Origin: a bacterium
Lineage (GTDB): Bacteria; Bacteroidota; Ignavibacteria; UBA10030
Direction: 5' to 3'
Length of the DNA stretch: 64,000 nucleotides
Assembly (NCBI GenBank): GCA_043803945.1
Contig: JAZDJN010000087.1
Location: 96,001-160,000, forward strand
This document shows, in pieces, positions 21,728-64,000 of the stretch (positions are counted from its first letter, which is position 1; the number at the start of each line of letters is the position of its first letter). The translations under genes were made by a program, and so were the position numbers. A model generated the notes under the pieces. It did not search any database. It had not been told where the DNA came from and saw only the letters and a list, made by a program, of their open reading frames with translations.

Positions 21728-23618
21728 AGCAGGAAACCGACATATCGTTCTCGGCATGGCGGGCCACATTGACCACGGGAAAACAGCACTTGTCAAAGCA
21801 TTGACCGGCACCGACACCGACCGCTTGAAGGAAGAAAAGGAACGAGGGATGACAACCGACCTCGGCTTCGCGTTCTTCGGCGACACCATGACGATTATCG
21901 ATGTGCCGGGCCATGAGAAATTCGTCAAGACCATGGTTGCCGGCGTCAATACTGTGGATATCGCCATGCTCGTCATCGCTGCTGATGACGGTATTATGCC
22001 GCAAACACGCGAACATCTCGAGATCCTTCGCCTGTTGCAGATTTCAAAGGGGCTTGTCGTTCTCAATAAAATCGACATCGTTGAACAAGAGTGGCTCGAC
22101 CTCATCACCGCCGATATCAGGGCATTGCTGAAAGGGAGTTTTCTGGAACATGCCCCCCTTGTATCCGTCAGTGCGCTGACGGGAAAAGGGATACAGAACC
22201 TTAAACGCGAACTTAATACGCTCGCAGGTTCTATTCAGGCAAGGAGAGACAAGGGAATCTTTCGTCTTCCTATTGACCGCGTATTCACTATTAAAGGTTT
22301 CGGCACTATCGTGGCCGGGACAGTCATATCCGGCAGCGTTCACGTCGACGATTCGGTGGAACTTCTCCCGCAGGGAAAAACTCTGAGAGTGCGCGGATTA
22401 CAGATCCACGAGCAGAATGTGTCAGAGAGCCGGATCGGTTTTCGTACGGCAATCAATCTGATGGGAATAGAAAAAGAATCCATTGAGCGGGGCGACGTAA
22501 TCGCGGCACCCGGTTTTTTCAAACCGACGTACATGATCGACGTACAATTTTCCTATCTGGCAGGGGCATTGCACGCACTTGAAAACCGTACACGTGTGCG
22601 CGTCCATATCGGCACCAGTGAAGTTATTGCCCGCATTATCTTACTGGATCGGGAAGCCTTTGAACCGGGCGCAGAGGGATTTGTACAAATCCATTTTGAG
22701 CAGCCAATTGTCGCAGATGCCGGCGATCGATTTGTCGTCCGAAGTTACTCTCTGCTGCAGACCATTGGCGGCGGTTCCGTTCTGGACACTCATCCGGAAA
22801 AACATAAACGATTCAAGGAGGAGGTCCAACACCGGCTGCAAACCATTGCACAGGGCGATACGGAACAGCACATCCTTGAGCATCTCATCCGGCTTGACAA
22901 TGCACTCGTCGATGGCAGCACATTGTCGAAAAACGCAAGCATCCCAATTGACACCTGTCTTCTCCATCTGCAAACCCTGGTGGAAAAGCAACAGGCCATC
23001 CGGTTTGGAGCGGAACAGTGGTATGCCGTTGCCAACCTTTCGATGCTGCGGAACCGTGTCTCGGAGATCCTGAAAAAATTCCACCGTGAACAGTCATTAC
23101 GAACCGGCATGCTGGTTGGAGAATTGCATTCACGAATCAAACCTCCCATTGAAAAGAAATTGTTCGATGCCGTTTGCCGTGCACTGCAGGCGGAGGGTAT
23201 GGTGCAATTTATCGGTGACCGTATTGCGCTCGCGGAATTTTCTATTCAACTGACACCTGAACAGAAGGAACTGAGGAAGAGGATCGAAAAAGAATTTGCT
23301 AAAACACCGCTTATGCCCCCAAATCCGGATGATCTTCTCCCTGGCCTTGGCAAAGAGAGCCAGCACATTTTTCAACTGATGATCGACGAGGGAGAGCTTG
23401 TCCGTCTTGACGAGGGGATTGTGATGCATAGAGAAGGGATTGAGTACGCGAAGAAAGAGATTACCACTTTTCTGAGCCAGAAGGACGCAGCGGCATTGGG
23501 CGAGATCAGGCAGCATCTGGGCATCACCAGAAAATATGCTCTTCCCCTGTTGCTCCATCTTGATACTTTGGGTATTACTGAGCGTGATGGGGATGTCCGA
23601 CGGCTTAAACAACGATAA
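21720..23618 (+). CDS. selB: Selenocysteine-specific elongation factor
   Basis: [30 protein letters not shown]; C-terminal winged helix with [11 protein letters not shown]...T.R.GD.R; ATG 21720 overlaps the end of selA. Confidence 0.97.
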
Positions 23619-23655
23619 CACTATGCTCTGCTCCAGGAAAGGACGATTCATCAAC

Positions 23656-25160: not shown

Positions 25161-25218
25161 ATCTTTCTTTTCCCTCCTTATGAAGGGGAGGGATTTATTC
25201 ATCAACATAAACACTCTC

Positions 25219-26316
25219 ATGACACAAGAACAAGACAACACAGCGTCGAAGCCAAGTGGGCGGCAAATTCGCCTGATGAGCTTCAGCGCATGCGCCGGTT
25301 GAGCCGGCAAAGTGAGCCCGGCCAGGTTGGCCGGAATCCTTGACAAATTGCCGCGCGTCAAGTCGCCCGATCTTCTGGTCGACATGGAAACCATGGACGA
25401 CGCCGGTGTGCTACGCCTTTCTTCAGAACTGGCATTGGTGCAAACGCTCGATTTCTTCGAACCGATTGTCCATGATCCGAAAAGCTTCGGACGCATCGTG
25501 GCTGCCAACAGCCTTTCCGACATCTGGGCAATGGGGGGCACTGCATTGACAGCAATGAATATTCTTGCTTACCCCTCGAAGAAAATTTCCATCGATGTGA
25601 TCGAGGAACTGCTCATCGGCGCGTGCGAAAAACTGCAGGAGGCGAATGTCATTCTTGTCGGCGGACACACCATGGAGATGCAGGAGATTTTCTATGGCAT
25701 GAGCGTTACCGGCACAATCCATCCCGATCGTGTGCTCACCAATGCAAAAGCCCGGATTGGCGACAAGCTTCTTCTGACAAAACCGCTCGGTGTTGCCGTC
25801 TATTGCGAAGCGCTTCGCAACGACGGCCTGACGGGCGAACAATACAACGAAGTGATCGGAAGCATGGAGCGATTAAACCTCTATGCCTCACAGGTGCTGC
25901 AACGGTTCGATATCAGCGCTATGACCGATGTCACCGGCTTTGGATTACTCGGCCATGCACTGCCGATCGCCCGCAATGCAGGCGTTACGCTGGCAATAGC
26001 TGTCCATGATATACCTCATCTCTCCTCATTCTTTGATCTCATGCAGCAGTTTCTTCCAACACAAACATGGAAGAGCCATGAATATGTCAAGCCCTTTACA
26101 TGGAGAGATGAGCATATTTCAACAGATCAATATGCACTGCTGGGAGAAGCTCAGACATCAGGAGGATTGCTCGCGGCAATCAATCCCAAGCAAGCAAACG
26201 AAGCGCTGAGCGCATTACACGCTGCGGGAGATACAGCGGCAACGGTGATTGGAGAAGTAGTTGGACTTGTTAATACTTCAGAGGGACATCCGGTTTTTCT
26301 TCAGATTCTCCCCTAA
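25219..26316 (+). CDS. selD: Selenide, water dikinase (selenophosphate synthetase), Sec-containing
   Basis: ATG 25219 reads ...RLMSFSACAG-U-AGKVSP into the 25312 ORF; TGA 25300-25302 is at the catalytic C/U-x-x-K position; DDAGV, QTLDFF, AANSLSDIWAMGG, GGHT, TDVTGFGLLGH and QTSGGLL motifs. Confidence 0.95.
25318..25334 (+). promoter_or_regulatory. SECIS-like hairpin of selD
   Basis: CCGGCC-AGGTT-GGCCGG at +16 to +32 after the TGA. Confidence 0.75.
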
Positions 26317-27290: not shown

Positions 27291-27297
27291 CCATCCT

Positions 27298-32349: not shown

Positions 32350-32495
32350 ACGCTGATACCGTTTCTGCAACAAGCCGGGGGGCGACAAATTGATGCCCTG
32401 GGAGTCGTTCGCCTAAAAGTAGAGAAACGATGAGAAGAAAGCAAATAGATGGAGCGCTACTGCAGCATTCGAGAAAATCTGTGAGAAGAATCGAA

Positions 32496-33547: not shown

Positions 33548-33643
33548 GGGGATGAATGAGGACCTGGTGGCCTTCGCGGACTTCAAATCCGTTGTCCCGC
33601 CCCGAGAGGGGTGGGAGGTGGGTTCGATTCCTACCCGTCCCCG
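33548..33643 (+). tRNA. selC: tRNA-Sec (anticodon TCA)
   Basis: GGGGATGA/CCGTCCCC extended acceptor stem; anticodon arm GCGGA-CTTCAAA-TCCGT (TCA at 33583-33585); long variable arm TCCCGCCCC..GGGGTGGGA; T-arm GTGGG-TTCGATT-CCTAC; discriminator G; CCA not encoded. Confidence 0.95.
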
Positions 33644-33870
33644 CTAAGATTACTCTGCGATGGGACGAGGCTCGTCCGCCGAAGGCGAGACGGCCCGTCC
33701 CCGCTAAAAGAATCGCCGCCAAGTTCGCCAAGAACTAAGAGAGTGGAAGAGTGGAGGGTGCACACGATATACAAGCGTATTCTGTTAGAATCGTGAGACT
33801 TTACAATAGCTCTTTTATTTCTTTGTGTTCTTGGCGCCTTGGCGGCACACTATAGAGGAGGAACCAATCG

Positions 33871-34398: not shown

Positions 34399-34439
34399 TT
34401 TCTAAAATCGCCCTCATCAACCACACGCACATCAAGACC

Positions 34440-38620: not shown

Positions 38621-38773
38621 TACGAGTAAAGAATGGTCTTCAGAATTATTCATCATACTTCATCTGTGACTATCAGTGCGTTTCTTGTGTTATCGGTGTT
38701 CTATTCTTGGTTTTTCGTATGTATAAAATTGCTATCTGAGTTACCAATAAACTTTAAGTATATAGAGGTGGAT

Positions 38774-50436: not shown

Positions 50437-50667
50437 ATGAAAAACAAACTCATCGATACCGTTCTTGTCCTTGTCTACATTACTGCCCTCTTCTCTATAG
50501 GTTTTTCTTTTTCGAGTTGTGTCTCTTCCGAACTTGCTCTCCAAATGGAAACCTCGGTCAACTGTCCGTTAATGAAGAATCTTCAGGACAACGACGAAGA
50601 TCTCTTTCAAATTGAAGACGGCATTGGCGCCGTTGGGGAGGCCTCAGCCTGCCCCACGTGAGGGTAG
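50437..50667 (+). CDS. Small lipoprotein selenoprotein ending CPT-U-G (DUF4266-like)
   Basis: Lipobox FSSC; ...GIGAVGEASA-C-P-T-TGA(50659-50661)-GGG-TAG; CxxU motif and downstream SECIS-like hairpin. Confidence 0.8.
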
Positions 50668-50671
50668 GTCC

Positions 50672-50691
50672 TATGTTTCAGGTGAAACATA
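50672..50691 (+). promoter_or_regulatory. SECIS-like hairpin
   Basis: TATGTTTC-AGGT-GAAACATA, perfect 8-bp stem at +11 after the TGA; same geometry as 19433-19452. Confidence 0.8.
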
Positions 50692-51707
50692 CGAATACTA
50701 TCTCTCGAGTTCGCATCCTCTTCGGAGTGCTGGTTGCGGCTATACTGTTCTCTCCCTCACCTGTTACTGCGCAAGGATATGACGATGCTTTCGAAATGAG
50801 AAGCAAGCTCAAGGTAGAGGTACAATATGCCGACTATGGGGAGTACGAATACCCTGAGCCAATCCTTTACCAGTATGGTCTCTCACCCTATCAACAACGT
50901 TATCCTTACATCGTCAATTTTCCTGAGCGGCGGGGACTCATCAAATTCAGCAGATTGGTGAGTAGTGAGACGGTTCTTGGATTCAAATATCAATTCTCCG
51001 ATCTCCGTGAAGATGTCAAGCAGCATCTCTTCGAAACAAAACTGACGAAAACACTGGATATCGGAATTATCGGTATAGCTGCGGCACAGCTTCTTCGTGA
51101 TTCCCGGGGATTTTCTGCGGTTCAATACGGAACAGGAATAAGCTGGGAGCCAAACGCAATCACATTGTTCCAGGGAGACATCCAGTATTATTATCGAGGA
51201 GATGCTGCTAGTAGTGTGGGCGGAAGATTAGGAACTGCCAATGCACGTTTGAAGTTCAGACAAGTCTTAACGCTTTCAACCGCCCTGCAAGCCGAGTATA
51301 GTTTCTATAACGCAGCGGGCAACTCGTTGAAGTTCAACTCGCAGAGCCTGGCACTGTGGCTCAGCCAATTTTTCAAGACACAAACAGCTATTCATGTCAA
51401 TGGCCGGTTCTATACAAACACGATGGGCATTCAATCCTTCTCCCCCTCTCTGGAAATTGCTCAATATATCGACTGGGCGACCGTTCTCTGGCTGAAGTTC
51501 CGGTACTATACAAACGAGAGCAGGAATGTCTCCTTCGGTGAGCAGGGTGTCTATATCCCCAACGGTTTAAGATCGACCTCGGTGAGCGCGCAGGTAAATC
51601 ATGAACTAACTCCCTCTCTGCTGGTTTACGGGAAATATCGGTACTACAAGAGTAACCTAAACATCCAGATGAATACCTATCTCACTGGATTGGTCTATTC
51701 CTTTTAG
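50673..51707 (+). CDS. Outer-membrane beta-barrel protein (DUF3570-like by context)
   Basis: Signal peptide, amphipathic beta-strands rich in Y/R, C-terminal ..GLVYSF. Confidence 0.75.
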   Translation: MFQVKHTNTISRVRILFGVLVAAILFSPSPVTAQGYDDAFEMRSKLKVEVQYADYGEYEYPEPILYQYGLSPYQQRYPYIVNFPERRGLIKFSRLVSSETVLGFKYQFSDLREDVKQHLFETKLTKTLDIGIIGIAAAQLLRDSRGFSAVQYGTGISWEPNAITLFQGDIQYYYRGDAASSVGGRLGTANARLKFRQVLTLSTALQAEYSFYNAAGNSLKFNSQSLALWLSQFFKTQTAIHVNGRFYTNTMGIQSFSPSLEIAQYIDWATVLWLKFRYYTNESRNVSFGEQGVYIPNGLRSTSVSAQVNHELTPSLLVYGKYRYYKSNLNIQMNTYLTGLVYSF

Positions 51708-51836
51708 ACCACTGATTATCGCTGATTAACACTGATTATCACTGAGAAAAGTAAGTAGGTTGAGATCTTGTTCGAAGAAATAGCAAATAGAATCTTTGTC
51801 TGCGTTCGGGGCTGACTAAAAAGAGAACTCGCGGAC

Positions 51837-51985
51837 TGTCATTCCGGCAATCTTCTAGCCGCCTGCCTGACGAAGTGTTCGTCACGCAGGCAGGGAATCC
51901 AGACAAAGGCTAAATCAATACACTGGACACCGGATTGAAGTTCCGCTGTACGGGATGCCGTAAAGCGGCACATTCCGGTGTGACG
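51837..51985. repeat. REP/RPE-like composite palindrome with a nested 33-bp CCTGCC...GGCAGG element (51862-51894)
   Basis: GTCATTCCGGC..GCCG[insert]GAATCCAG....CTGGACACCGG...CCGGTGTGAC. Confidence 0.65.
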
Positions 51986-52051
51986 CGTCATTTCTTTTTA
52001 GACGACCCCAAATTGGCGTGCCATCGGTGGAGAATTTACTTAATTACAGCA

Positions 52052-52825
52052 ATGAACAGAACTCGCGCTATAGGATTGTTGCTCTTTCTTCTCTCCTGGT
52101 TCTTGCTGCAGCAGTGCGGCGAGGCTCCTCCGACAATTCCGGAACTGTTTACCGGATCGCTTAAAATAACGGCATCTGATCCGGCAATCAAATCTCTGGC
52201 AATCGACCTTGACGACATAAAGCTTGGTCTCTTTCCGAATCCGGCATTGGTATCAGATCTTACAATCGGCACTCATAAACTTCTGGTCACCGGAGACAAT
52301 AAGGCTTCATCAGTACTACTCGTAACCATCGCACGAAATCAGCAAACCAATATTGTTCTCGAATTGCTGGCCGAAGGTGCGTTTCTAGGACAGAAAGCTC
52401 CAGATTTTGCTGTGACGACTATCCTGAATGAGCGATTCTCCCTTGAGTCGCAGAAAGGCAAAGTGGTGCTTCTTGCCTTTTTTGAACATACCTGACTGGA
52501 GTGCATTCAGGCGGAGTTGCCGTCTGTGCAATGGGTTGTCGGAGCAGCATTCTCGCCCGAGCAGTTGACGATATTGGGCGTGAATACTACATCCTCAACT
52601 GAGTGGTTGTTGAATTATCGCACCCAGTCGGGTATCACATTCCCATTCGCGTACGATCAGAAGAGCGAATTGTTTACCAAGTACAAAATCGGCGGAACGT
52701 ATGGATACTATCCGCCGACGTATATCATCATCGATCAGAACGGTATTGTCCGGTACAGAATTGACAACACCTTTAAACGAGCAGTGGAAATGGCAACTTG
52801 CATAAAAGGATTACTCACAAACTAA
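52052..52825 (+). CDS. TlpA/peroxiredoxin-like thioredoxin-fold selenoprotein (UxxC) with N-terminal PEGA-like domain, probable lipoprotein
   Basis: G.KAPDF...GKVVLLAFFEHT-TGA(52493-52495)-LECIQAELP joins ORFs 51935 and 52517 in one frame; later YPPTYIIIDQNG.VRY. Confidence 0.9.
52502..52530 (+). promoter_or_regulatory. SECIS-like hairpin
   Basis: TGCA..CAGGCGG-AGTTG-CCGTCTG.TGCA. Confidence 0.7.
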
Positions 52826-52851
52826 CCAAGGCAAACCTTGATGGAGGCGCT

Positions 52852-55161
52852 ATGAAAACGAAAGTGAGTATTATAATTCTGCTGATCCCGGTGATGATTG
52901 TGTCACAGAGCAAATCTTGGGAAGCGATGGGTCCAGAGGGGGGAAGAATTGCTGCGTTCGCCCAGGATCCTCAAAACGGCGCCATCTTGTACACAACAAC
53001 CTATGGATATCCCAGCAAAATCTTTAAGTCTTCAACTCACGGACAACAATGGAACGTGGTTGGATCGATCAACGATTATATCAGTGGATTTGCTATTGAT
53101 CCACGTATAAGCGCAATCATCTATGTGTTCTCCTCGAGCCGGCTCTATCGAAGCACAAATGGCGGGCAGATCTGGTCATCGATTCCGTTGCCGGCGAATT
53201 ATTACCTCTATGACATTTGCCTCGATCCGATAAAATCCAACACGATTCATGCAAGCGGCTATCATTACGTCTCCGGCACAACATACCAGTCGTACGTCGC
53301 TTATCTGAACAGCACGAACGCCGGTGCATCCTGGACAACAAACGATATTCTGCTGACGTTGAGCTACAATGAGGGATATGGGCGAGCCATCGCTGTCGAT
53401 AGTTCTGATAATCAAACAATCCTCATTGGGGGTTACGTCTATGTACTCTCTGGCAGTTTGTACAACGGATATGGCAAACTCCTTCGCAGCACAAACAGCG
53501 GCGTTAGTTTTTCCGACGTGACACCATCGGGTTCAGGGTATTTCTACGATGTTGCTATCGATCCGAAAAATTCCGGGAAGGCCTACGCAGCATCGTCGGG
53601 TGGTGTCTATCGAACAACAGACAAGGGATTAACCTGGCTGCGGAATAATGGTTTTGTGGGCATCTGTTACTATCTTTCCCTCGATAAGGCGAATCCCAAT
53701 AACCTTCTCGCTCAATCATACGGCCAACTCTACCGGAGCACTGACGCTGGAATCAACTGGCTTCAATCACTTACGACCGGGTCGGGGTATTCGGGGATCA
53801 TCATGGAGAACTCTCCATCGCAGTACATGTTTTATGCCAACGACGCCGGCATTTTCCAATCCAGCAACCGCGGCAACACCTGGGAACCCTGCAATCGCGG
53901 TATTACCTCTGCAAATATCACCTCACTGTATACTCCATCTTCCTCGATGCCAATCCTGTATGCAGGATTCCAATACAATACAGTATTCAAAACCACGGCT
54001 GCAACTAACCCGTCGGTATCGTGGCAGATGCTGGATCGATTTTACACATGCACCAATATCAACGCAATACTCTCATTGCCGGAAGATCCGAACAAGCTTT
54101 ATGCTCTGGAGGGCGGCGGCTGAGGTAACTCTGGGCTCTATATGAGCACAAACGGCGGCGCCGCTTGGAAACAACTCAACCAGACGCTTGATGAAGGATA
54201 CGCAGTTGTCACTGTCCCCGGAAGTGTTTTTACCGGAGGATGTCTTGTCGATAGTGCGCTTTCAAAGATGGCTGTTATCAAACTCACCATTGATGGTACG
54301 CTAACCAACACATCGATCCTGAGTTCTGAAGCCGGTGAGGTGAAGGCCATGGCTGTCCATCCCATAAATTCTTCTATCGTGTATGCGGGTGGAACCTATC
54401 GTGATATTTCATACTATAACTGCAGTCGATTATATAAAACGATAAATGGCGGAAGCAGTTGGTTTGAAATCGGTAAAACTAGTTTCAACATCAAAAACGA
54501 TGGAGTGTACGGTCTCTGTGTCGATCCATCGAATCCGGCTAAACTTCTTGCCGCAACAAACCTTGGTGTTCTTGTCAGTGAAAACGAGGGTACGACATGG
54601 AGCTCGGCAGCGCAGAAATTAAATTGCACCTCGCTTCTCCCCGACCCTTTAACGCCCAACCGGTATTTTCTCGGAACAAGAACCGGCGTCTATATCAGCA
54701 TTGATGGCGGGAAGTCCTGGCAGCAACTCGGGGGCCAATTAACTGCAACACCGGTTCTCTCGCTCGCTTATGATAAAATAGCAAAGGTCCTTTATGCCGG
54801 GACAGAAGGGCAGGGTGTTTACCGCTATAGCCTCTCGACAACAAATGTTGCTTCAGCACCCTTTGATGTGCCCGACGAATTTGCGCTGTACCAGAATTAT
54901 CCCAACCCGTTTAATCCATTGACAATAATCGATTTTCAATTGCCGATTACCACAATGGTGACACTTAGTGTTTTTGACCTTCTCGGCCGCGAGGTGGCAA
55001 TACTGGTGAATGAAGAAAAAACGGCGGGAAGGTACTCCGTTTCATGGAATGCATCGAACACTCCGAGCGGTATTTATTTTTACAGACTGTTGACCGGCGA
55101 CGCCAACCATGAACCAAGGGCAAGTCTCTGTCAGACAAAAAGAATGATCATCCTGAGATAA
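52852..55161 (+). CDS. BNR/VPS10-type beta-propeller selenoprotein with T9SS C-terminal domain (769 aa, Sec424)
   Basis: Signal peptide, W..MGPEGG start, S.N.G..W Asp-box repeats; YALEGGG-TGA(54121-54123)-GNSGLYMSTNGG joins ORFs 52798 and 54142 in frame; LYQNYPNPFNP. Confidence 0.8.
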
Positions 55162-55211
55162 TTTTTCGAATCTACTGTCTCTTCAAGCAGGACTATTATC
55201 GGACGGAAAGT

Positions 55212-56084
55212 TTGAGTACCTTGCTTTTATCCTATCACTTTGCAGCGACAATGATCCTTGCCCCAATGACTCCCTTACTGGCACAGCGACTCTGTGCTGC
55301 ACTTCACTGCAGCCTCCCCACAAAAAAAATGGTCGACGATATTTATCGGGCTGCACCAGTAAAACTTGCACCGCAGCCTATCCCCCCCAGCGGTGCCATG
55401 ATAACGGTGCCCGTGTTTGCCGCTCATAATGATTCGGTGCGACAATAACGCTCTGCTTCATTATCACAATTTCCCCTGGGTGTTCTGATAGGCGGAACAA
55501 AGAAGGATGTAATTATCTCAAACAGAATTTATACCAACCTAAAAATAAATGTCCCCAAGCCGGTCGTGATTTATGGATGGCATAAGCTCGATGGAACACC
55601 GATACAACCCGTCTATAACGGCCACGAGCAGACCTACGCCGATTACAGCCATGGCATTCGCCTTGTGAAGGATACCGTGCTGGTTGATGGTATCCCGAGA
55701 TTTCTCTCTTCGGTGCTTGCTGATCCGGTGTATCATCTTCTCTTGAGCGACGAAGGAATCATTTCCATTCCCTATTACACTTTATCTACCCATGTATTAC
55801 CCGAAGAGGTTCCACCGCCCTATCAATTTCAACTCCATCAAAACTATCCAAATCCATTCAACCCAATTACAACAATCTGTTTTACTGTGTCATCTTCTGG
55901 TAAGTATCAGCTCAGGGTGTACACCTTAACAGGAAAGGAAGTTAGCGTACTTGAATATCAGGAGTTGTATGCGGGTAATCAGACGGTTCGGTATGATGCT
56001 CGTGATCTGCCCTCGGGAACATATTTCTACAAATTAGAGAGCAAGAACGGTGCACTCATCAGAAAAATGACGCTGGTGAAATGA
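55212..56084 (+). pseudogene. 5'-truncated T9SS-domain protein gene with an internal TAA
   Basis: PMTPLLAQR...HNDSVRQ-TAA(55446-55448)-RS...GGTKKDV..VVIYGWH..YADYSHGIRLV..QNYPNPFNP in one frame; no signal peptide or credible start. Confidence 0.75.
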
Positions 56085-56420
56085 AAGATCCTGAGATGGG
56101 AGAGAGTTCCGCCAATCCGCCAAAAAGATGGCGGACAAGTCCACCCCCGACATTAAAGCGTTGAACTGCCGGTCATCCGCCTGAATAGACCTAATCGTTC
56201 GCTGCTCAGCGAAATCTGATAGAAAGCGAATGAACTTTCACGGCGAGATTACTCTCTCTTTCGTTGCCGAAAGATATGGTTCGGGTATTTATCATTACCA
56301 CATTTAAAAGGTGAGCAGCATTTTCACGCGCAGAGTATTTTTTTGAAAGACCATTTTCCCAAACCATGTGATGGTTGCCTTTCACCTGAAACTCGTGTAG
56401 CTTTAATTCACTGAGGGTTG

Positions 56421-56452
56421 AATCCCCCGCTGCTTGCGGCGGGGAGCTTCAT
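56421..56452. mobile_element. Possible isolated IS200/IS605-type end hairpin (no transposase)
   Basis: AATCCCCCGCTGCTTGCGGCGGGGAGCTTCAT, imperfect GC-rich hairpin resembling IS605-family ends. Confidence 0.35.
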
Positions 56453-56500
56453 TTTTATCACTGTTCTTTTTTTATCATCTGCCTGAAAGCTCCTGCCGAT

Positions 56501-58933
56501 ATGCCAAGAATAATGCTGCTTGTTTTTCTCCTTGCTGCGTCTACACTCCAGGCTCAGGTGGCGCTGGATACTCTTTCTTCGTTCCCTGTGGCACCCGGTG
56601 TAATCCATACCACCATCGTTGCCCCGTCTGTTCCATGGACAATCAACCTGCTCCAGATCGACCTTACCAATCCCCTCATTAGCGTCAAAACGGTCAAAGC
56701 GAACGACCGCATGGCGGGTCTGGAACGAACAAGCTCCATGGCGGCACGGAATAGCCGCGAAGGTCACCTGGTTGCAGCCGCAGTTAATGGAGATGCTTAT
56801 GCGGCCGGTGGTATTCCCACCAACATGCAACTGGTCGACGGTGAGCCTGTTCACAAAGAGGTCGACAACGTCTGTATCGGGCTCGACCTGACCAAGAAAC
56901 CGATGATGAAGATGGTGAATTTCGACGGCGAAGTCCGGACCGCAAAGGAGGTCTATCATTTTTCCAGCATCAATCAGGCACGAGGATCCGATCAGCTTGT
57001 GCTCTTCAACCGCTTCTACGGAAACTCAACAGGTACCGATGCCAACGGTGCAGAGGCGCTTTTGACGCCTCTGTCGGAATGGTATGCCAATGGCCTCGTG
57101 GCATGCCGGGTCGATACAATTGTCAACGGCGCAGGGAACACGTCATTTCCCTCTTCAAAAGTTATCCTTTCAGGTCATGGCGCCGCTCGAACATTTCTAA
57201 CATCACGAATACAACAAGGTGACACGCTCCATCTCTTTCTCGGCCTGTCGCCCTCTCTAAAAAAAATGAAACAGATGATTGGGGGATTTTCTATCCTCGT
57301 GTCCGAGGGAAAAGTTAATACTACGCGTATCACGGTCCGTGAGCCGCGCACCATTGCAGGTTTCTCTGCCGACAGCACAAAACTCTATCTTGCGACCATC
57401 GATGGACGGTCGGCATCGAGTCTCGGGATGACTTACTTTGAGCTTGCCGATTTTATGCTCCAGATGGGGATGGCTTTCGGCATTAACCTGGACGGCGGCG
57501 GATCGACCACAATGGTCGTCCGGGATCAAATAACCAACCGCCCGTCAGACGGCCAGGAGCGAATGGTAGGCAATTCCATCGTCGTCGTTTCCACCGCGCC
57601 GAAAGGTCAGTTGACAAAGATTCAGATACTGCCGAATCGGGCAAAAGTTTTTATCGGAGATACGTTTCAGTTCTCGGCGCAGGGTGTTGATGAATATTTT
57701 AATCCGTATCAGCTCGATCCTTCCCTAATCACTTTTTCCGTTCATCCCTCCCTGGGAACGATATCCCCGACGGGACTTTTCAAACCGAGCGGGTTAAAAG
57801 AAAGCGGATTTGTCTACATCTCTTATGGATCGCTTATCGATTCCGCAGCAGTGTTGCTCCGAACGATCCGGCGAATAGCGATAACACCGAAATTTGCTGT
57901 CACCGATCTTTCCCGCCCAATTCCTTTTTCGCTGAATGGATTTGACGAGGACGGTATGGCACATAAACCCGGCCTTTATCAAATTCAATGGAGGCTCACG
58001 AATCCTTCGCTTGGACAGATTTCGCCGGAAGGCGTTTTTACTCCACAGGCCAGGGGAATCTCGCTTCTTATTGCCTCCATGAACAATACGGCAGCAGACA
58101 CAGCGCTGATCCGGGTGGAGACAGGAAGCGGAACGCTCGTGATCGATTCATTGGAATCGAGAGGGAACTGGAAAATCTCTATGTTGAATATCGAACAGGC
58201 CGCCGTGAGTATTGCTCCAACTGTCAGTTCATTAGGCCGGTTTTCTCTGCAAATCGATTATTCATACCGGTATGATTCAAGCGTCCCCTCGTACATCTAC
58301 ATCGATTCTTTGTTTTCGTTATACGGTGTACCGGATTCACTCTCGGTTGACTGCCGCGCCGATAGTGCACGGTACCGTCTCTATTTCATTGTCGAGGATG
58401 ACAACAGGGAATTATTCCGTTTCTTCGGGCATACATTTGCTGATCAGCCAAACATCTTCAAACAGATTCGGGCATCGACTGCTACTCCTCAGATGGTTGG
58501 CACCTCGGGAGTTTTCAATTTTCCTATCACGCTGAAACGTATCGAAATACAGTTGATGGGAACGGGAAAATTTTCAGGGACTCATTACAATGGTACGTTG
58601 TATCTGGATAATCTCACCGTTCATTATCCGGGAATTCCCACCGTTGCAGAACGGGAGATCTCTCCTCCTCGAACTTTTTCTCTTCTGCAAAACTTCCCCA
58701 ATCCCTTCAATCCGACAACGACCATCCGGTTTACGGTTCCTCACAATGGCCTATACCGCTTGACCGTTCATAACCTGCTGGGTCAGGAAGTGATTATGGT
58801 ACTGCACAAGACTCTTTCAGCAGGGTATTATTCGGTACTGTTCGATGCAGAGCAGTTAAGCTCGGGTATGTACGTTTACAAGCTCGAAGGGGGTGCGTTA
58901 ACCCTTACGAAGAAAATGCTGATCGTGAAGTAA
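56501..58933 (+). CDS. Phosphodiester glycosidase (NAGPA-like) protein with Ig-like domains and T9SS C-terminal domain
   Basis: AAVNGD, EPRT..G, TIDGR, GMT..ELA, NLDGGGSTT and NRPSDG.ER motifs; LLQNFPNPFNP. Confidence 0.9.
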   Translation: MPRIMLLVFLLAASTLQAQVALDTLSSFPVAPGVIHTTIVAPSVPWTINLLQIDLTNPLISVKTVKANDRMAGLERTSSMAARNSREGHLVAAAVNGDAYAAGGIPTNMQLVDGEPVHKEVDNVCIGLDLTKKPMMKMVNFDGEVRTAKEVYHFSSINQARGSDQLVLFNRFYGNSTGTDANGAEALLTPLSEWYANGLVACRVDTIVNGAGNTSFPSSKVILSGHGAARTFLTSRIQQGDTLHLFLGLSPSLKKMKQMIGGFSILVSEGKVNTTRITVREPRTIAGFSADSTKLYLATIDGRSASSLGMTYFELADFMLQMGMAFGINLDGGGSTTMVVRDQITNRPSDGQERMVGNSIVVVSTAPKGQLTKIQILPNRAKVFIGDTFQFSAQGVDEYFNPYQLDPSLITFSVHPSLGTISPTGLFKPSGLKESGFVYISYGSLIDSAAVLLRTIRRIAITPKFAVTDLSRPIPFSLNGFDEDGMAHKPGLYQIQWRLTNPSLGQISPEGVFTPQARGISLLIASMNNTAADTALIRVETGSGTLVIDSLESRGNWKISMLNIEQAAVSIAPTVSSLGRFSLQIDYSYRYDSSVPSYIYIDSLFSLYGVPDSLSVDCRADSARYRLYFIVEDDNRELFRFFGHTFADQPNIFKQIRASTATPQMVGTSGVFNFPITLKRIEIQLMGTGKFSGTHYNGTLYLDNLTVHYPGIPTVAEREISPPRTFSLLQNFPNPFNPTTTIRFTVPHNGLYRLTVHNLLGQEVIMVLHKTLSAGYYSVLFDAEQLSSGMYVYKLEGGALTLTKKMLIVK

Positions 58934-59007
58934 CGGATGATTCTTTTAGAGAAATTGGTTATCATTAGACCAGAGCTTAAGAAAGCGATTGCCAGAAAGA
59001 ATCCAGC

Positions 59008-59514
59008 ATGGTCCGTCCAAATATCAGAACTCTAGCAACCCTGTTTATTCTTTTCGTTGTACCATCGTTGATCTCCCATGCACAGGAAGGCCTCAAAGCA
59101 GGAATGAAAGCACCAGACTTCGAGCTCTCCGACATTAACGGAAACAAGGTTTCTCTCTCTTCCTTCCTCAATAAAAACATCGTCGTCATTCACTTCTGGA
59201 AATCGAAGTGAAGAGAATGCCAGGCGGAGTTTCCGTCTCTCATCGATCTGCAGGAAGAAATTAAAGAAGTAAAAGTCCTCTCCATCAACACCATTGACAT
59301 GGCGAGAAGGGTACAGTCCGATGCCAGAGCTTTCGGCCTCCCCTTCGATGTCCTTGTCGGCAGGGATTCGAACATCCTTACCGTTTACAAAGTCACAAAA
59401 CTCCCCCGGGTGCTTATTGTCGGAAAGAAGGGGACTGTTGTCTTCACCGAAAAGTTTGCCTCCTATGAAAAGCTCAAAGAAGAAGTTGAAAAAGCATTGA
59501 AGAAGGGATTATAG
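59008..59514 (+). CDS. Exported TlpA-like thioredoxin-fold selenoprotein (UxxC, 168 aa)
   Basis: G.KAPDFEL.D.NG.KVSLS...VVIHFWKSK-TGA(59209-59211)-RECQAEFP; open frame to 59514 including LPRVLIVGKKG. Confidence 0.92.
59222..59238 (+). promoter_or_regulatory. SECIS-like hairpin
   Basis: AGGCGG-AGTTT-CCGTCT; shares CAGGCGGAGTT.CCGTCT with the 52508 hairpin. Confidence 0.7.
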
Positions 59515-59815
59515 CAATATCATACTCAGCCAATAAGTGCCACAAAGAAAAAAGAAAACTATAAAGAGTTCTTTCTTCGTGTAGCTTCGTGCCTCCTTCG
59601 TGCTCTTCGTGTAACGCTATTAAAAACTTTACACTAAGTGACACGAAGGAAAAGAGAAGACACAGAGGCGTAAAATAACGAGTGTTAATAATTGTCGTAA
59701 AGCAAGATAGAATAGAATCCATACATTAAGTCATCATAATCCTGTAAGTGTTTCACTTGGTGCCTTATAGACTTCGTGGCACATTTTTCGTCGAGAACTA
59801 AGTAAGGAGAATCAC

Positions 59816-61852
59816 ATGAATCTCATCACCAGAAGAATTTCAGGGTGCATCGTTTTGATGTTCCTGTTTTGCGGGCTCCTTTTCTGTCAGAAAGCTCAAT
59901 GGGAGTCTCTCGGTCCCGACGGCGGTATGATTCAAAGCCTCCTCAAAGATCCGGGTAATGGTAACATTCTTTACTGTGCCGCTCAGGGGAAACCATACCG
60001 CATCTTCCGCTCGACAGACGGAGGGAACCACTGGTCGCAGGTTTCGAAGATCGACGATCAAGTGCTCGCCTTTGGGAATCATCCCACAGTGAAATCGATG
60101 CTCTATGTGCTCGCCTACAAAGTGAGCACAGACAATACACGACCGACACGGGAGAACACACTCTACATCAGCACGGATGGCGGAACAAGCTGGCTGACTA
60201 AAGAGCTTCCGGAGCAGACATTTATTTCAAAGATTGCTCTTGATCCGGTAAGCCCGACAATTATCCACGCAATGGGATTGCTGCAGCCGGATTATAAGCG
60301 GGCATACTTTAAAAGCACGGATGAGGGAAAGAGCTGGACTCAAACCATCATTGCATCGGGGCGTGGTTCTGCAAGCGTCCTTGGAATCGATCCAAAGAAT
60401 CCCAACATCATCTATGTCGGCGGTTATACCCTGAATGATTCCAACAAACTCGTGCCCGCATTCTATAAGAGTGTCGATGGCGGAGCACATTTCGAGCAGA
60501 TGTCCCTGAAGATCACCACTCCCGCAGTTGCCATCATTTCAGATATTGCCATCGACCCCACGGCCTCCGGCAGGCTCTTCATTTCAATTTCCAATGCCGT
60601 CTATCGAAGCACCAACGGCGGCGAATCATGGGAAAAGAACAGCAGTACAATCCTCGCAGTGCAGCGGCTCTGGCTCGACCCGAATGATTCGAACCATCTC
60701 TTTGCCGCAACTTCTCCGGGGATTATCGAGAGCAAGGATGGCGGCGTAACGTGGAAATCGCTCACCGGCAAATATCCCGGCCGAACAACGAATGGTCTCA
60801 TGTTCAAGTCAAAGCCAATGCCCACGGTGCTTGTTACCAACTCCTCCGGTATCTGGCGAACGGTGGATGGAGGAAAAACATGGAAGTCAAGCCACAGTGG
60901 CATTCTCGGTACAACGGTCACGGCGTTAAGTATCGCCCCATCGTCACCGAACATTTTATATTCCGATGTAAAGTTCAATGCGCTCTATAAAACAACAGTC
61001 GCTGCAAAACCAACTGTTGTATGGAAACAGCTTCCGGTTTTCTATACGTGTACAGAGTTAAGCAGCCTGATGATCTCGGAGAAAGATCCCGATAAAATCA
61101 TCGCCCTCGAAGGCGGTGGCTGAGGAAACTCAGGGCTCTTTGTGAGCACAGACGGCGGCGCCGTTTGGAACGAACAGGATAAGACACTTGATGACGGATT
61201 TGCACTTGCATTGGGATCGGCCCTCTATCAGGCGGGCAGTTGGAAACCGGATCCGAAGAATACGCTGATTCGAATGGCGGTCTTTAAGAGTTCTGACAAG
61301 GGCGAAACCTGGCAGCATAAAACACTCAGCGACAGCGCAGGGGTGGTCAAGGCGCTGGTGGTTCACCCTACAAACAAGAACATTCTCTTTGCCGGCGGGA
61401 CAGTCTGGTGGAACCGGTTTATGAAAAACGCTGTCACTAAAAGCGTTCTCTACGCTACTCAGGACGCTGGAGAAACCTGGATAGAAATCGAAGGATTGAA
61501 CGGCAAGTCGGATTGTATTAACGGCCTTGTCTTTGAACCAGGCAATCCTAATCGACTGCTTGCTGCCATGAACAATGGTGTTGCCATCAGCGAAGATGGA
61601 GGAAAGATATGGAAGCTGCCATCGCAGCAGGTAGCGGCACTTTGTATTGTTGCCGACCAGCTTCAAAAAGGGCGCTTTTTCATTGGCGGCCCGAAGGGTG
61701 CCTGGAGGAGCGATGACGGCGGAATCACGTGGAAAGAACTCAATGAGGGCTTGACCATTCGCTCGATTCTCTGTCTGACATATGATTCGAAAAATTCGAT
61801 ACTGTATGCCGGCACTGAAAGCGGCGGCACAGTACGGTTGCACCTGAAATAA
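59816..61852 (+). CDS. BNR/VPS10-type beta-propeller selenoprotein, no T9SS domain (678 aa, Sec436)
   Basis: TAAGGAG SD; WESLGPDGG; S.DGG..W repeats; IALEGGG-TGA(61121-61123)-GNSGLFVSTDGG joins ORFs 59816 and 61142. Confidence 0.8.
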
Positions 61853-62134
61853 CCCGATATGGTCGGGAGCAGACTTGTCCCGACGTTTTTGTCGGGAGCT
61901 CCCTCCCAGATACCGAACCGTTCTCTCCTTCCGGTGTTCATAGAGAAGGGAACGGTTCGTTTCGTACTATCGCTTTACAGTAATCAAGAGACTTCGTACA
62001 TTGTACTTGCCTGCCGGGAGAATGTGGGGAAGGTTCGGGCTGCGCGATGTGTAACGCACATCGCGCGATCATCAACACGTTCAGGACATCGTTCTCACAT
62101 GTTTATTCCACACAGCACAATCAGAGAGGTACAA

Positions 62135-63769
62135 ATGAAACCGTTCATTGTTGCTCTTGCTCTTCTTTTTGCGTTCTCCCTCCGCGCACAGGAAACGATC
62201 ATCACCGGCACACTGCTTGGTTATGACGGCAAACCGATGCAGATGACAAACATTCATCTTCAAAAACCGGGACAAAAACCAAAAGAAACTGTCCGGGCAG
62301 AGAAGGATGGTTCGTTCAAACTGATCGTTAAGGATACCGGCATTGTTCTTATCAAGTTTGCCGGACTCTTTCATCTGTCGGAAGATATTCCCTTTCTCAT
62401 CAAGCAACCGTCTACCATCAAGCTTTCGCTTCAGTTAGGGACATACCATTGCAATAAAAAACCACTAGACCCAAAGATTCTTGGAAGTTTTAATAATTGG
62501 AACTTATCGAAGCCTTTCGACCTGAAAGAAGAAAAGGATGGGACATATTCCGCGGAATTTGAAACAGCAGAAAAGGAATTTTCCTATCAGGTTCAGGGTT
62601 TTGAATCAACCGGTCGAACCGTTAACGGTACGCTTTCCGAACGGTATGAATACGACGGCGACGGTGATTATCGATCGATTGTGACACCAAAGGATGGAAA
62701 GATAAAAATTGTTTTTGATCCCTCTAAGGTTCTTGTCTCTTCCGCCCTGCCAAAACTCCAATTCGACGATCCCGGAAGCCGTGCGGCTCGCTATAGCACT
62801 TACCGCTTCGATGTCCTACGGTTGATACGGGAACGCTCATGGGCTCTCCTCGACTTTATTAACTCCGGAGGTGAGTCTAAAGACTTCAAGTTCGACAAGG
62901 ATTATTCGTCTGAGATGACCGCCTGCGCACAAGAAATAAAGAAGGAGAGTGATCCGCTGCTTCGTGATTTACTCTTTTTAAAATATTTTTACTACCCGCC
63001 TGAGAAAGGAGATATTGAAATTGCCAGACTCTACTTGAAGGTACTTCCCGACTTAATGAAACATCAACCTAGCGCGGGTGAGATCTCAGTTTTCTCTTCA
63101 CTTCTCTCGATCGGTAAAATGATGCAGTATAACGATGAATACATGAGCTCCTTTTTCGAGATCATTGATAATTCCAAAAGTGCAATTCTAAATTACAATT
63201 TGATCAATAATGTAATGAGAAATTTGAAGACACAGAACGATGCTGCGGCAGTAAAAGCATTCTACACGAAAGCGTTGGAAAAACTGGAAGGCACATCGTG
63301 GCTAAGGTCTTTCAAACAGCAATATGCTCCGAAAGCAGTAATTGCCGCAGGCGAAGCGGTTCCCTCTTTCTTAGTCAAGTCGCTGGAAGACAATACAAAA
63401 ATCTACACCAATCAAACAATGAAAGGCAAAGTGTACCTGGTACACTTCTGGGCGTCATGGTCCGAACCATCGTTGAAAGAGATGGAGAATCTTCACAAAA
63501 CGTATGAACAGTACAAAACAAAGAACTTTGAAATTCTCAGTCTCTCAGTTGATGCTTCACCGGAAGAGGGAACAGCGTTTCGTAAAAAGAAATGGGCGAT
63601 GCCCTGGCTCCATGCCTTTGCATCGACGGAGAAGAATTTGTTGGCCGACTTTGGGGTGCTTGCACCGCCAAAATTGATACTGATCGATACAAAGGGGATT
63701 GTCGTCGCAATGGACGCAGAGCTTCAGGGTGCAGCGTTGGGACAAACGCTTGCTCGTATTCTAAAATGA
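62135..63769 (+). CDS. Exported multidomain protein with a C-terminal TlpA-like domain whose CxxC is replaced by SxxS
   Basis: ATG 62135 after GAGGT; carboxypeptidase-regulatory-like N-terminus; GKVYLVHFWASWSEPSLKEM; PP..ILID.KG.VV. Confidence 0.85.
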   Translation: MKPFIVALALLFAFSLRAQETIITGTLLGYDGKPMQMTNIHLQKPGQKPKETVRAEKDGSFKLIVKDTGIVLIKFAGLFHLSEDIPFLIKQPSTIKLSLQLGTYHCNKKPLDPKILGSFNNWNLSKPFDLKEEKDGTYSAEFETAEKEFSYQVQGFESTGRTVNGTLSERYEYDGDGDYRSIVTPKDGKIKIVFDPSKVLVSSALPKLQFDDPGSRAARYSTYRFDVLRLIRERSWALLDFINSGGESKDFKFDKDYSSEMTACAQEIKKESDPLLRDLLFLKYFYYPPEKGDIEIARLYLKVLPDLMKHQPSAGEISVFSSLLSIGKMMQYNDEYMSSFFEIIDNSKSAILNYNLINNVMRNLKTQNDAAAVKAFYTKALEKLEGTSWLRSFKQQYAPKAVIAAGEAVPSFLVKSLEDNTKIYTNQTMKGKVYLVHFWASWSEPSLKEMENLHKTYEQYKTKNFEILSLSVDASPEEGTAFRKKKWAMPWLHAFASTEKNLLADFGVLAPPKLILIDTKGIVVAMDAELQGAALGQTLARILK

Positions 63770-63840
63770 TTATTGATTAATGCTCTCTAGAGAATGATAT
63801 TGAACTTGTTATTCACTCACTACTATGTGGAGGTGACTCA

Positions 63841-64000
63841 ATGAACCTTAACTCACGTATGATCTTCCCGGCGATTGTGCTGCTTCTCCTTCTGCCGCTG
63901 CTGCTGGCCGGGCAAACCCGCCTGCCATTGAAGACCACTTCAAGCGGGCAGGGCGGAACGTGGGAGCCAATTGGACCTGAAGGAGGAAGTATGACTGCAC
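63841..64000 (+). CDS. N-terminus of a third BNR/VPS10 propeller paralog (3'-truncated by window edge)
   Basis: GGAGG SD; MNLNSRMIFPAIVLLLLLPLLLAGQ...TWEPIGPEGGSMTA matches WEAMGPEGG and WESLGPDGG of the two Sec propellers. Confidence 0.75.
   Translation, partial: MNLNSRMIFPAIVLLLLLPLLLAGQTRLPLKTTSSGQGGTWEPIGPEGGSMTA

Follow-up and report, generated by a model that had tools for sequence, protein, structure and literature searches.

The stretch of DNA analysed here (64,000 nucleotides, hereafter the window) carries a conserved operon for exported selenoproteins, which accompanies the machinery for selenocysteine (Sec) incorporation and which, we propose with moderate confidence, most likely constitutes an extracytoplasmic thiol/selenol reducing pathway. 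Comparison of related loci supports the view that the genes are genuine, decode Sec, are conserved and specify exported proteins. With few exceptions, the bacterial selenoproteins known so far are, to our knowledge, redox enzymes of the cytoplasm or periplasm with familiar folds. The operon would add two protein types, a GH74-shaped tandem propeller (in part secreted by T9SS) and a tiny lipoprotein ending in CxxUG, neither of which is in the 2026 table of 119 selenoprotein families (PMC13188914, Table 1).

The conserved core of the operon consists of a lipoprotein ending in CPTUG, a DUF3570-like outer-membrane barrel, a TlpA-type lipoprotein whose motif reads TUxxC, and a tandem propeller of GH74-like type that contains C...GGGUG and carries a T9SS tail; a second TlpA-type protein (KUREC) is often encoded 3' of it. 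In the window, where every feature described here is on the + strand, the small lipoprotein (50437..50667; 76 aa on read-through translation, Sec codon 50659-50661) is followed by the barrel gene (50673..51707), by TlpA1 (52052..52825; 257 aa, Sec codon 52493-52495), in which Pfam places a Redoxin domain with FFEHTULEC after a lipobox and an N-terminal domain, and by propeller 1 (52852..55161; 769 aa, Sec codon 54121-54123 within GGGUGNSG), a BNR/Sortilin protein by Pfam with the T9SS tail. Downstream are additional TlpA/propeller pairs lacking that tail: TlpA2 (59008..59514; 168 aa with an apparent signal peptide, Pfam-assigned, Sec codon 59209-59211 in FWKSKUREC) with propeller 2 (59816..61852; 678 aa, likewise recognised by Pfam, Sec codon 61121-61123, again GGGUGNSG), and TlpA3 (62135..63769), in which a long N-terminal region precedes the TlpA domain, with the start of propeller 3 (63841..64000). 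Propeller 3 continues beyond the window; the equivalent site in it, about 1.2 kb past the window end, holds a seventh in-frame TGA. The five in-frame TGAs listed in the first-pass annotation (50659, 52493, 54121, 59209 and 61121) were all found where it had placed them when sequence and translations were checked; the threefold succession of TlpA and propeller was also seen, and hydrophobic segments resembling signal peptides or lipoboxes are visible at the N-termini of all five translations. Two genes for T9SS cargo, a small protein and a protein with a NAGPA domain by Pfam, are inserted between the modules (55566..58933); they are not members of the system elsewhere, as none lies between propeller and TlpA2 in loci G273, L116 and L117.

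The TGA is kept at the identical codon in every orthologue examined, a comparison that the first-pass annotation had proposed: 17/17 for the lipoprotein, 10/10 for TlpA1, 6/6 for TlpA2 and 10/10 for the propeller. Because TGA is an ordinary stop codon in this genome (it terminates 805 of 2379 long open frames) and yet is fixed at the same codons across loci whose proteins are just 29-72% identical, this conservation exceeds chance. In each of the four families a hairpin with compensatory base changes lies 13-29 nt 3' of the Sec TGA. The hairpin of TlpA1 (52509..52525 by folding, AGGCGG-AGUUG-CCGUCU) is homologous to that of TlpA2 (59222..59238), and in their alignment 100% of cells are paired, with compensatory change in two pairs. 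The propeller hairpins begin 29 nt past the TGA (54150..54166 in propeller 1, from alignment A5; 61150..61166 in propeller 2, from folding and alignment); over helix columns 30-46 of the alignment 96% of cells are paired, against 30-38% in slid controls, and three pairs show compensatory changes. Taken by itself, the portion following the TGA is identified as Sortilin-Vps10/BNR in nine of nine propellers tested. It is highly improbable that the TGAs are plain stops in genes that are split, decayed or mis-assembled: gene callers did predict shortened N-terminal products and, as separate entries, the C-terminal portions, and stops of this kind are common here, but against this stand the fixed codon, downstream parts that stay in frame, conserved and recognisable as propeller domains, covarying hairpins and a full set of Sec genes nearby. 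As had been anticipated, standard annotation truncates the genes, with all 30 database copies of the lipoprotein terminating at CPT and propeller copies stopping at EGGG or beginning just past the Sec site, so that these selenoproteins are hidden in current databases.

The window also contains, as first described, selA (20309..21727; Pfam SelA, 505 bits), selB (21693..23618; GTP_EFTU, SelB barrel and winged-helix domains by Pfam), selD (25180..26316; AIRS and AIRS_C domains) and a tRNA-Sec gene with anticodon TCA (33548..33644), found by ARAGORN and as Rfam RF01852 (62.9 bits). The tRNA was the only match in the Rfam search, which returned none for the Sec hairpins. SelD is itself a selenoprotein, reading CAGUAGK through a TGA at 25300-25302; this sixth in-frame Sec codon was missing from the earlier list. 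Analysis of neighbourhoods links the selenoprotein genes to selABD and tRNA-Sec: in five loci sel genes are no more than about 25 kb from the operon, directly adjoining it in L117, L119 and L032 (as selB, selD or selA), 5-10 kb away in G273, whose own genome has selA and tRNA-Sec, and 17-30 kb away here. In a sample of 151 genomes of the order SelA turned up in two, the same ones that have the operon and its barrel; the barrel occurred in 2 of 401 genomes when the phylum was sampled separately. From the restriction of SelA to operon-bearing genomes and the position of sel genes beside the operon, the Sec trait of this lineage seems to be kept mainly for the exported system.

The lipoprotein gene ends in TGC CCN ACN TGA GGG followed by a stop in 17/17 loci. 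This final stop varies (TAG in 13, TAA in 2, TGA in 2) but is always a stop, while the preceding TGA is invariant, indicating that the frame is read past the TGA. The hairpin begins 13 nt after the TGA (50672..50691; by folding, 8 bp here, with loop AGGU). All 14 distinct sequences keep its 5-bp core paired, one pair being CG in eight and UA in six, with no mispairs; in most loci, however, the core is no longer than these 5 bp, and the hairpin contains the start codon of the barrel gene, so that its function may instead be to regulate barrel translation. For the lipoprotein, then, there is the alternative that the protein truly ends at CPT and that the invariant TGAGGGTAGG and the hairpin act as ribosome-binding site and translational control of the barrel gene. 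The barrel ATG or GTG does lie inside the hairpin, about 10 nt after a Shine-Dalgarno-like GAGGG, and the Cys form, ending in CPTCG, is absent among the 30 database copies, so that the case for Sec in this protein is built on codon conservation and the hairpin. We nevertheless consider this alternative distinctly unlikely, since it is opposed by the invariant TGA ahead of a shifting stop two codons on, by a loop (AGGU, AGUU or AGGC) whose +13 position matches the spacing of the operon's other Sec hairpins, and by the coherent redox pair that a CxxU protein would form with the neighbouring UxxC TlpA. In 'Star' selenoproteins (UXX-star, KCU-star; PMC13188914, Table 1) Sec is at or near the C-terminus. 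The protein ending in CxxUG is likewise small and has Sec no more than three residues from its end; it differs in being a lipoprotein tied to a barrel, and it matches no NCBIfam model and no Pfam model at E up to 10.

As for the TlpA-type proteins, AhpC-TSA scores of 65.5 (P0003), 71.5 (P0005) and 46.4 bits (P0007) lie above the Pfam cut-off of 26. The proposed equivalence of Sec and Cys holds for TlpA1 (TULEC) and TlpA2 (KUREC), in which U is aligned with the leading Cys of the WCGPC motif found in ordinary TlpA. It does not extend to TlpA3 as a redox partner: its site is the degenerate WSEPS, with neither Cys nor Sec, although the L032 orthologue reads AGPC. In the comparison with curated NCBIfam selenoprotein redoxin models, TlpA1 and TlpA2 remained under the cut-offs (WAxxUGC_long, 29.5 versus 300 bits; TUGYCR, 26.7 versus 100 bits). 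They resemble the known thioredoxin-fold selenoproteins with UxxC (Prx-like thiol:disulfide oxidoreductase, cd02966 thiol-disulfide isomerase-like, PF08534 Redoxin; PMC13188914, Table 1) in being Redoxin/AhpC-TSA proteins whose CxxC has U in place of its first Cys, and TlpA1 differs from them by its extra lipidated N-terminal domain.

The propellers resemble glycoside hydrolases in shape. An AF2 model of propeller 2 (pLDDT 86.5, pTM 0.83) had GH74 enzymes as at least its top 20 Foldseek matches (TM 0.61-0.66); with GH74 xyloglucanases such as 2cn3_A the modelled protein shares the tandem seven-bladed BNR fold (Foldseek E 3e-26, TM 0.64; PDB profile E 3e-36). In contrast to these enzymes, to which it is 17% identical, the propeller has a conserved Cys/Sec pair and a TlpA partner for each gene, and the conserved core contains no genes for carbohydrate use; HMMER alignments with GH74, whose catalytic Asp pair is in the cleft between the domains, shift from repeat to repeat. 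The conserved Cys lies 24 residues upstream of Sec (Cys412 and U436). Among seven distant full-length relatives the Sec position is occupied by Cys in two, Ser in two and other residues in three, and the closest full-length relatives have K/T or D there, not Cys. The T9SS tail (Por_Secre_tail; 35-37 bits in propeller 1, P0004, cut-off 27) is present in 6/6 propellers that follow a lipoprotein-barrel pair, counting L129 with only 23 bits, versus 0/3 others (P0006, P0129 and L032). This association of the tail with the lipoprotein-barrel pair fits a relay from the periplasm to the surface.

The closest known system is the flavinylation-associated cluster of DsbD, a Trx-like protein, DUF4266, DUF3570 and ApbE (Meheust et al. 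2021, eLife, PMC8238504). It parallels the operon in that adjacent genes encode a redoxin of TlpA type, a small lipoprotein (about 75 aa) whose C-terminus holds a redox pair, and a barrel of DUF3570 type. We confirmed this arrangement in canonical loci of this phylum. In the clusters so described, DUF3570 has two [S/T]GA[S/T] motifs and a neighbouring ApbE gene; canonical DUF3570 proteins had at least two motifs in 7/7 cases, whereas the motif is absent in 29/30 members of the operon's barrel family, the window barrel included. The operon has no gene for ApbE, which was looked for across operon loci, or for DsbD. It differs from the flavinylation clusters further in that its redoxin carries Sec, that a propeller selenoprotein is added and that its lipoprotein ends in CPTUG and not in the GGCGCN of DUF4266. 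The lipoprotein was rejected as a DUF4266 (PF14086; hhalign probability 5.7%), the likeness being limited to the size, the lipobox, a redox pair at the C-terminus and the position of the gene. The operon would be a natural Sec-for-flavin variant of these uncharacterised DUF4266/DUF3570/TlpA clusters and could help to reveal their role.

Assignment of the barrel to DUF3570 is weak by sequence. The protein (P0002) scores 12.7 bits against PF12094, under the Pfam cut-off of 25; of three tagged homologues retested, P0191 (25.9 bits) and P0194 (28.2) pass and P0198 (24.6) fails. The barrel search gave 78 matches including itself, mostly at 53-64% identity. By hhalign the relation to DUF3570 has a probability of 66% (E 5.5e-5), and the predicted structural neighbour in the ESM Atlas is a DUF3570 protein (TM 0.76). 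The predicted complex of barrel and lipoprotein scored 0.57, against 0.02 for the best control (at least 31% of contacts agreeing, partner pLDDT at least 37), which is weak support: of 78 solved pairs 51 pass the mark of this test, as do 2 of 108 mismatches, scores up to 0.60 include only 5 of the 78 solved pairs but all 4 mismatches that passed, and a weak pass is more often false than true except where the guess was a likely one beforehand.

We propose that an inner-membrane DsbD-type protein, for which two genes (DsbD_TM) are found elsewhere in the genome, would reduce the periplasmic TlpA proteins, in which the attacking Cys of CxxC is replaced by Sec, and that each TlpA would reduce the propeller encoded next to it. 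We place the propeller Sec in the B-C loop of blade 1 in the second of the tandem propellers, and the conserved Cys in the loop entering that blade; blade topology suggests that the two are close. They might cycle via a selenenylsulfide and reduce an oxidised extracytoplasmic substrate, possibly a peroxide, sulfoxide, disulfide or polysulfide. For the T9SS-exported propeller, the CxxU-tailed lipoprotein and the DUF3570-like barrel would form the link by which reducing equivalents reach or cross the outer membrane. Of the periplasm-to-surface selenium redox relay put forward in the first-pass annotation, the conserved exported Sec proteins, their linkage to sel genes and U at the TlpA CxxC stand, and the pattern of T9SS tails fits; the third TlpA does not, and the contact between barrel and lipoprotein is backed by the weak prediction above. 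A fuller version is tentative, and we rate it as possible but rather improbable: a Sec-based electron relay that crosses the outer membrane, from DsbD through TlpA (UxxC) and the CxxU tail of the lipoprotein, which would pass through, or be presented by, a DUF3570-type barrel free of flavin, to a T9SS-anchored, GH74-shaped surface selenoenzyme that is thereby kept reduced. It would be the first thiol/selenol route by which reducing power reaches the surface of a bacterial cell, with two new selenoprotein families, inherited with selABD and tRNA-Sec as a 'selenium island'. One point against the barrel as an electron conduit is that it contains neither a conserved Cys nor a flavin motif.

The barrel may, alternatively, be a Slam-like translocon that moves the Sec lipoprotein to the surface and does not itself conduct electrons, which would be compatible with the reducing pathway. 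A substrate-like lipoprotein gene lies directly 5' of the barrel gene, the shared hairpin couples their translation, the complex prediction is weakly positive, and among the barrel's ESM Atlas feature neighbours are Slam (SlipAM) clusters (score 0.94, a lead only). However, the barrel has no match to Pfam SlipAM at E up to 10, its structural neighbour is DUF3570 and not Slam, and weak passes of the complex test are more often false without a likely guess beforehand; we therefore think this role unlikely.

Pairs such as CxxU and C...U are good ligands for soft metals. The system might thus bind or process a metal or metalloid (a species of Hg, Cu, As, Se or Te, or S or Se in elemental form at the surface), or traffic selenium for the Sec pathway, and not be a general reductase relay. 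Consistent with this, the lipoprotein is strongly acidic with NLQDNDEDLFQIEDG invariant among database copies, the operon tightly adjoins selD, selA and selB, and the published table (PMC13188914) contains several metal-linked selenoproteins. On the other hand, the conserved core showed no transporter for metals, no regulator of the MerR/ArsR type and no domain known to bind metal, and three TlpA-type reductases favour disulfide or selenenylsulfide exchange, making a metal-directed function a minority possibility next to the reducing pathway. As part of the genomic context, a gene for a polyferredoxin-type membrane protein (19459..20355; Pfam Fer4_5, 59 bits) is directly 5' of selA in the window, and a Fer4_5 gene precedes selA in L032 as well.

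The first-pass annotation had singled out five in-frame TGA codons, at positions 50659, 52493, 54121, 59209 and 61121, and translation of the window bore all of them out: with TGA read as selenocysteine (Sec, U), five complete exported proteins with N-terminal hydrophobic segments result. They are a 76-aa lipoprotein (50437-50667) with Sec (TGA 50659) in its C-terminal CPTUG, directly before the stop; TlpA1 (52052-52825; TGA 52493), a TlpA/Redoxin protein with a lipobox and the motif FFEHTULEC; propeller 1 (52852-55161; TGA 54121), a 769-aa BNR/Sortilin propeller with the motif GGGUGNSG and a T9SS tail (C-terminal Por_Secre_tail domain); TlpA2 (59008-59514; TGA 59209), 168 aa with FWKSKUREC; and propeller 2 (59816-61852; TGA 61121), 678 aa, with GGGUGNSG as in propeller 1. 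Between the lipoprotein and TlpA1 genes lies that of a 344-aa barrel protein (50673-51707), which has a signal peptide and ends in ...VYSF. The threefold succession of TlpA and propeller genes proposed at first pass holds as to order, but the third TlpA (TlpA3, 62135-63769) has WSEPS in place of UxxC. Propeller 3 starts at 63841 and runs beyond the window, where the genome sequence has a TGA in GGGUGNSG as in the other two propellers. Genome-wide reassignment of TGA is ruled out, TGA closing 805 of 2379 long open frames. As had been anticipated, standard annotation truncates these genes: all 30 database copies of the lipoprotein stop at ...ACPT, and database propellers end at ...EGGG or start just 3' of the Sec site.

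The conserved core of the operon has the order lipoprotein(U), barrel, TlpA1(U), propeller(U) with T9SS tail, and was found in the window, in the related genome G273 and in the related loci L116, L117, L118, L120, L121, L124 and L129. TlpA2(U) often comes next after the propeller; in L129 it lies ahead of it. In the window, propeller 1 is followed by an insertion of two unrelated T9SS cargo genes and then by two additional pairs, TlpA2/propeller 2 and TlpA3/propeller 3; a further related locus, L032, has the order TlpA2, TlpA3, propeller. The T9SS tail is present in 6 of 6 propellers downstream of a lipoprotein-barrel pair (in L129 with just 23 bits) and absent from all three propellers that lack this pair upstream (propellers 2 and 3 and that of L032).

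To assess conservation of the Sec codons, we drew on several searches. Scanning metagenomes with the lipoprotein alignment yielded 15 related loci; the barrel, sought in 401 genomes sampled from the phylum, was found in one genome besides the source, G273; and a propeller pattern scan of species genomes (4-row alignment, two peptide patterns) picked up a single close locus, L032, but not G273. No propeller 2 homologue at E <= 1e-30 was seen in 60 other genomes, a sample of relatives. At the sites that the first-pass annotation had called Cys-equivalent or paralog-conserved, the TGA is kept in the lipoprotein (17/17 sequences), TlpA1 (10/10 loci), TlpA2 (6/6 loci) and the propeller (all 10 copies extending to the site). 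The lipoprotein gene ends in TGC CCN ACN TGA GGG and a stop in all 17 sequences, and no Cys form of this protein was found among the 30 database copies. In alignments with ordinary TlpA, the U of the TlpA proteins falls on the first Cys of the WCGPC motif. The propeller parts that follow the TGA were called propeller domains by themselves in 9 of 9 cases. At the position 8 residues ahead of the Asp-box, two of seven distant full-length propeller relatives have Cys, two have Ser and three another residue, and several of the seven also keep the upstream Cys. The L032 propeller gene (L032:5929-7970) is frameshifted near codon 208, on a contig that, to judge by its name, stems from a long-read assembly; because the remainder is intact and the TGA is kept, the gene is probably misassembled, not decayed. 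L032:1790-3310, immediately 5' of the TlpA2 module of this locus, encodes a thioredoxin-like protein with TPR repeats and an in-frame TGA in SPTUGGC, likely a further exported selenoprotein, which is absent from the window.

A hairpin follows every TGA of the four families, and overall the Sec gene system noticed at first pass is confirmed and extended. The propeller stem begins 29 nt past the TGA, with 96% of cells paired versus 30-38% when the partners are slid, and with both-sided changes at three pairs. TlpA1 and TlpA2 share a common hairpin, AG(A/G)CGG-AGUU-CCG(U/C)CU, which is 100% paired and has two compensatory pairs. In the lipoprotein gene the stem begins 13 nt past the TGA and its 5-bp core is paired in every sequence, one pair being CG in eight sequences and UA in six. 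In the barrel N-terminus the latter change replaces F by S and K by R, which points to selection on the RNA and not on the protein.

AF2 modelled propeller 2 with confidence (pLDDT 86.5, pTM 0.83). The PDB structures that match the model best are GH74 xyloglucanases, enzymes built as tandem seven-bladed propellers (TM ~0.64, 17% identity). A PDB profile search with the propeller gave repeat-shifted alignments, and for this reason the Sec site was not placed on the GH74 catalytic residues. In the strand map of the model the conserved Cys412 stands immediately ahead of strand 414-420, and U436, in the same blade, lies in the loop from strand 428-433 to strand 441-444; with the topology usual for propellers, the two loops would share one face.

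The operon resembles the DUF3570/DUF4266 clusters, in which ApbE flavinylates DUF3570 at two [S/T]GA[S/T] motifs and of which the DsbD/Trx-like/DUF4266 type is described as a hybrid thiol/flavin system for electron transfer whose function is unknown (Meheust et al. 2021, PMC8238504). Many genomes of the phylum (68 of 301) have canonical DUF3570 genes, and the loci examined have the order Redoxin, DUF4266, DUF3570, ApbE, with DsbD_N after ApbE in three; canonical DUF4266 is a 74-78-aa lipoprotein with the C-terminal GGGGCGCN. Single-sequence AF2 gave no usable model of the barrel (pLDDT 28), and the barrel matches Pfam DUF3570 weakly (12.7 bits, cut-off 25). Of three homologues with a precomputed PF12094 tag, two are over the 25-bit cut-off and one is just under it (24.6); hhalign against canonical DUF3570 gives a probability of 66% (E 5.5e-5), and the ESM Atlas model of the exact barrel protein has DUF3570 as structural neighbour (TM 0.76). 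A redoxin, a barrel and a small lipoprotein whose C-terminus has a redox pair are common to both systems. In contrast to those clusters, however, the present operon is without ApbE, the flavin motifs are missing from 29 of 30 homologues of its barrel (at least two motifs in 7 of 7 canonical DUF3570 proteins), its lipoprotein is not homologous to DUF4266, both redox partners contain Sec, and there is an extra propeller selenoprotein. The operon is a Sec-based, flavin-free variant of a known, uncharacterised redox cluster.

Table 1 of a 2026 review (PMC13188914), through which alone the families of Haft & Tolstoy 2025 (mSystems) were compared, has 119 prokaryotic selenoprotein families, including UxxC redoxin/TlpA types and C-terminal 'star' selenoproteins; that table is without a propeller, BNR, Sortilin or GH74 family and without such a lipoprotein. 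In the comparison with curated selenoprotein models proposed at first pass, NCBIfam redoxin selenoprotein models match far under their cut-offs, and in release 20 no model matches the lipoprotein or the barrel. Literature searches turned up no account of a selenoprotein that is a propeller or a CPTUG lipoprotein, and the words 'propeller', 'BNR', 'lipoprotein' and 'Ignavibacter' have 0 occurrences in the BSepDB paper, whose supplements or website could still list these families. The TlpA selenoproteins are new members of already known kinds, and the propeller and the lipoprotein each appear to represent a selenoprotein family not yet described.

The selA (20309-21727), selB (21693-23618), selD (25180-26316) and tRNA-Sec (33548-33644) genes reported at first pass were all located in the window, and selD is a selenoprotein gene as well (Sec in CAGUAGK). 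A TGA in the methyltransferase gene 3' of selD (26484-27290) looks like an ordinary stop, and this candidate was rejected. Upstream of the operon, tRNA-Sec lies at ~17 kb, selD at ~24 kb and selA at ~29 kb in the window, and tRNA-Sec at 5 kb and selA at 10 kb in G273. In L117 and L119, selB, an HGD-D-like gene, a BcrAD-type ATPase gene and selD are followed directly by the operon, and in L032 the TlpA/propeller module is directly 5' of Fer4_5, selA, selB and an HGD-D-like gene. No sel gene was found within 1.9 kb upstream of the operon in L129, where the neighbour is an MtaB-like gene on the opposite strand. SelA occurs in 2 of 151 sampled genomes of the order, namely the source genome and G273, which are also the two with the barrel, the two samples having been drawn separately and related genomes not being independent observations.

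Most likely, the operon encodes a reducing pathway outside the cytoplasm. DsbD, of which two DsbD_TM genes lie elsewhere in the source genome, would reduce TlpA(UxxC); TlpA would reduce a Cys/Sec centre in the propeller, which would then reduce an oxidised substrate; and the CxxU lipoprotein with the barrel would serve the T9SS-secreted, surface-exposed propeller form. The relay envisaged at first pass is supported in part: the Sec codons and their conservation, the hairpins, the N-terminal hydrophobic segments, the folds, the gene order and the sel linkage stand, and we infer every electron-transfer step, the pairing of Cys with Sec, what the barrel does and what the substrate is. A role of the operon in metal or selenium handling is a rival to this pathway. 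Another is that the barrel is Slam-like and displays the lipoprotein. Complex prediction for the two proteins of the window, without the UG tail, lends weak support to their association (0.57, best control 0.02; contacts agreeing in at least 31%, partner pLDDT at least 37), on a test that 51 of 78 solved pairs passed, as did 2 of 108 mismatches, and in which scores of 0.60 or less comprise only 5 of those 78 pairs and all 4 passing mismatches. A third, less probable rival is translational control by the TGA region of the lipoprotein gene; the stop two codons downstream of the invariant TGA is variable yet ever-present (TAG 13, TAA 2, TGA 2), as expected if the ribosome passes the first TGA.

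The surroundings of the sel genes have further features. HGD-D-like genes (2-hydroxyacyl-CoA dehydratase D-component) lie between selB and selD in the window, L117 and L119, followed in the latter two by the gene of a BcrAD/BadFG-type activator ATPase; in L032 the HGD-D-like gene is just past selB, and the locus ends before any selD. The stretches concerned are 23536-24927, 27241-28275 and 28272-29684 of the window, L117:882-2976, L119:2496-4590 and L032:12631 onward, and such a conserved insert within a sel gene cluster is unusual. Directly 5' of selA is the gene of a Fer4_5 (NapH-like polyferredoxin) membrane protein (window 19459-20355, L032:8332-9200). Between tRNA-Sec and the operon are large T9SS cargo genes, 38633-40840, 43194-45656 and 45767-50266, encoding a PSII_BNR propeller, a PQQ_2/BamB-like protein and a 1499-aa FG-GAP/TIG protein; their main frames have no in-frame TGA. 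Reg_prop/Y_Y_Y-type propeller proteins are encoded on either side of tRNA-Sec, at 34395-37496, a histidine kinase by domain scan, and at 29791-32388 (minus strand), similar by eye, and these might be regulators of the region.
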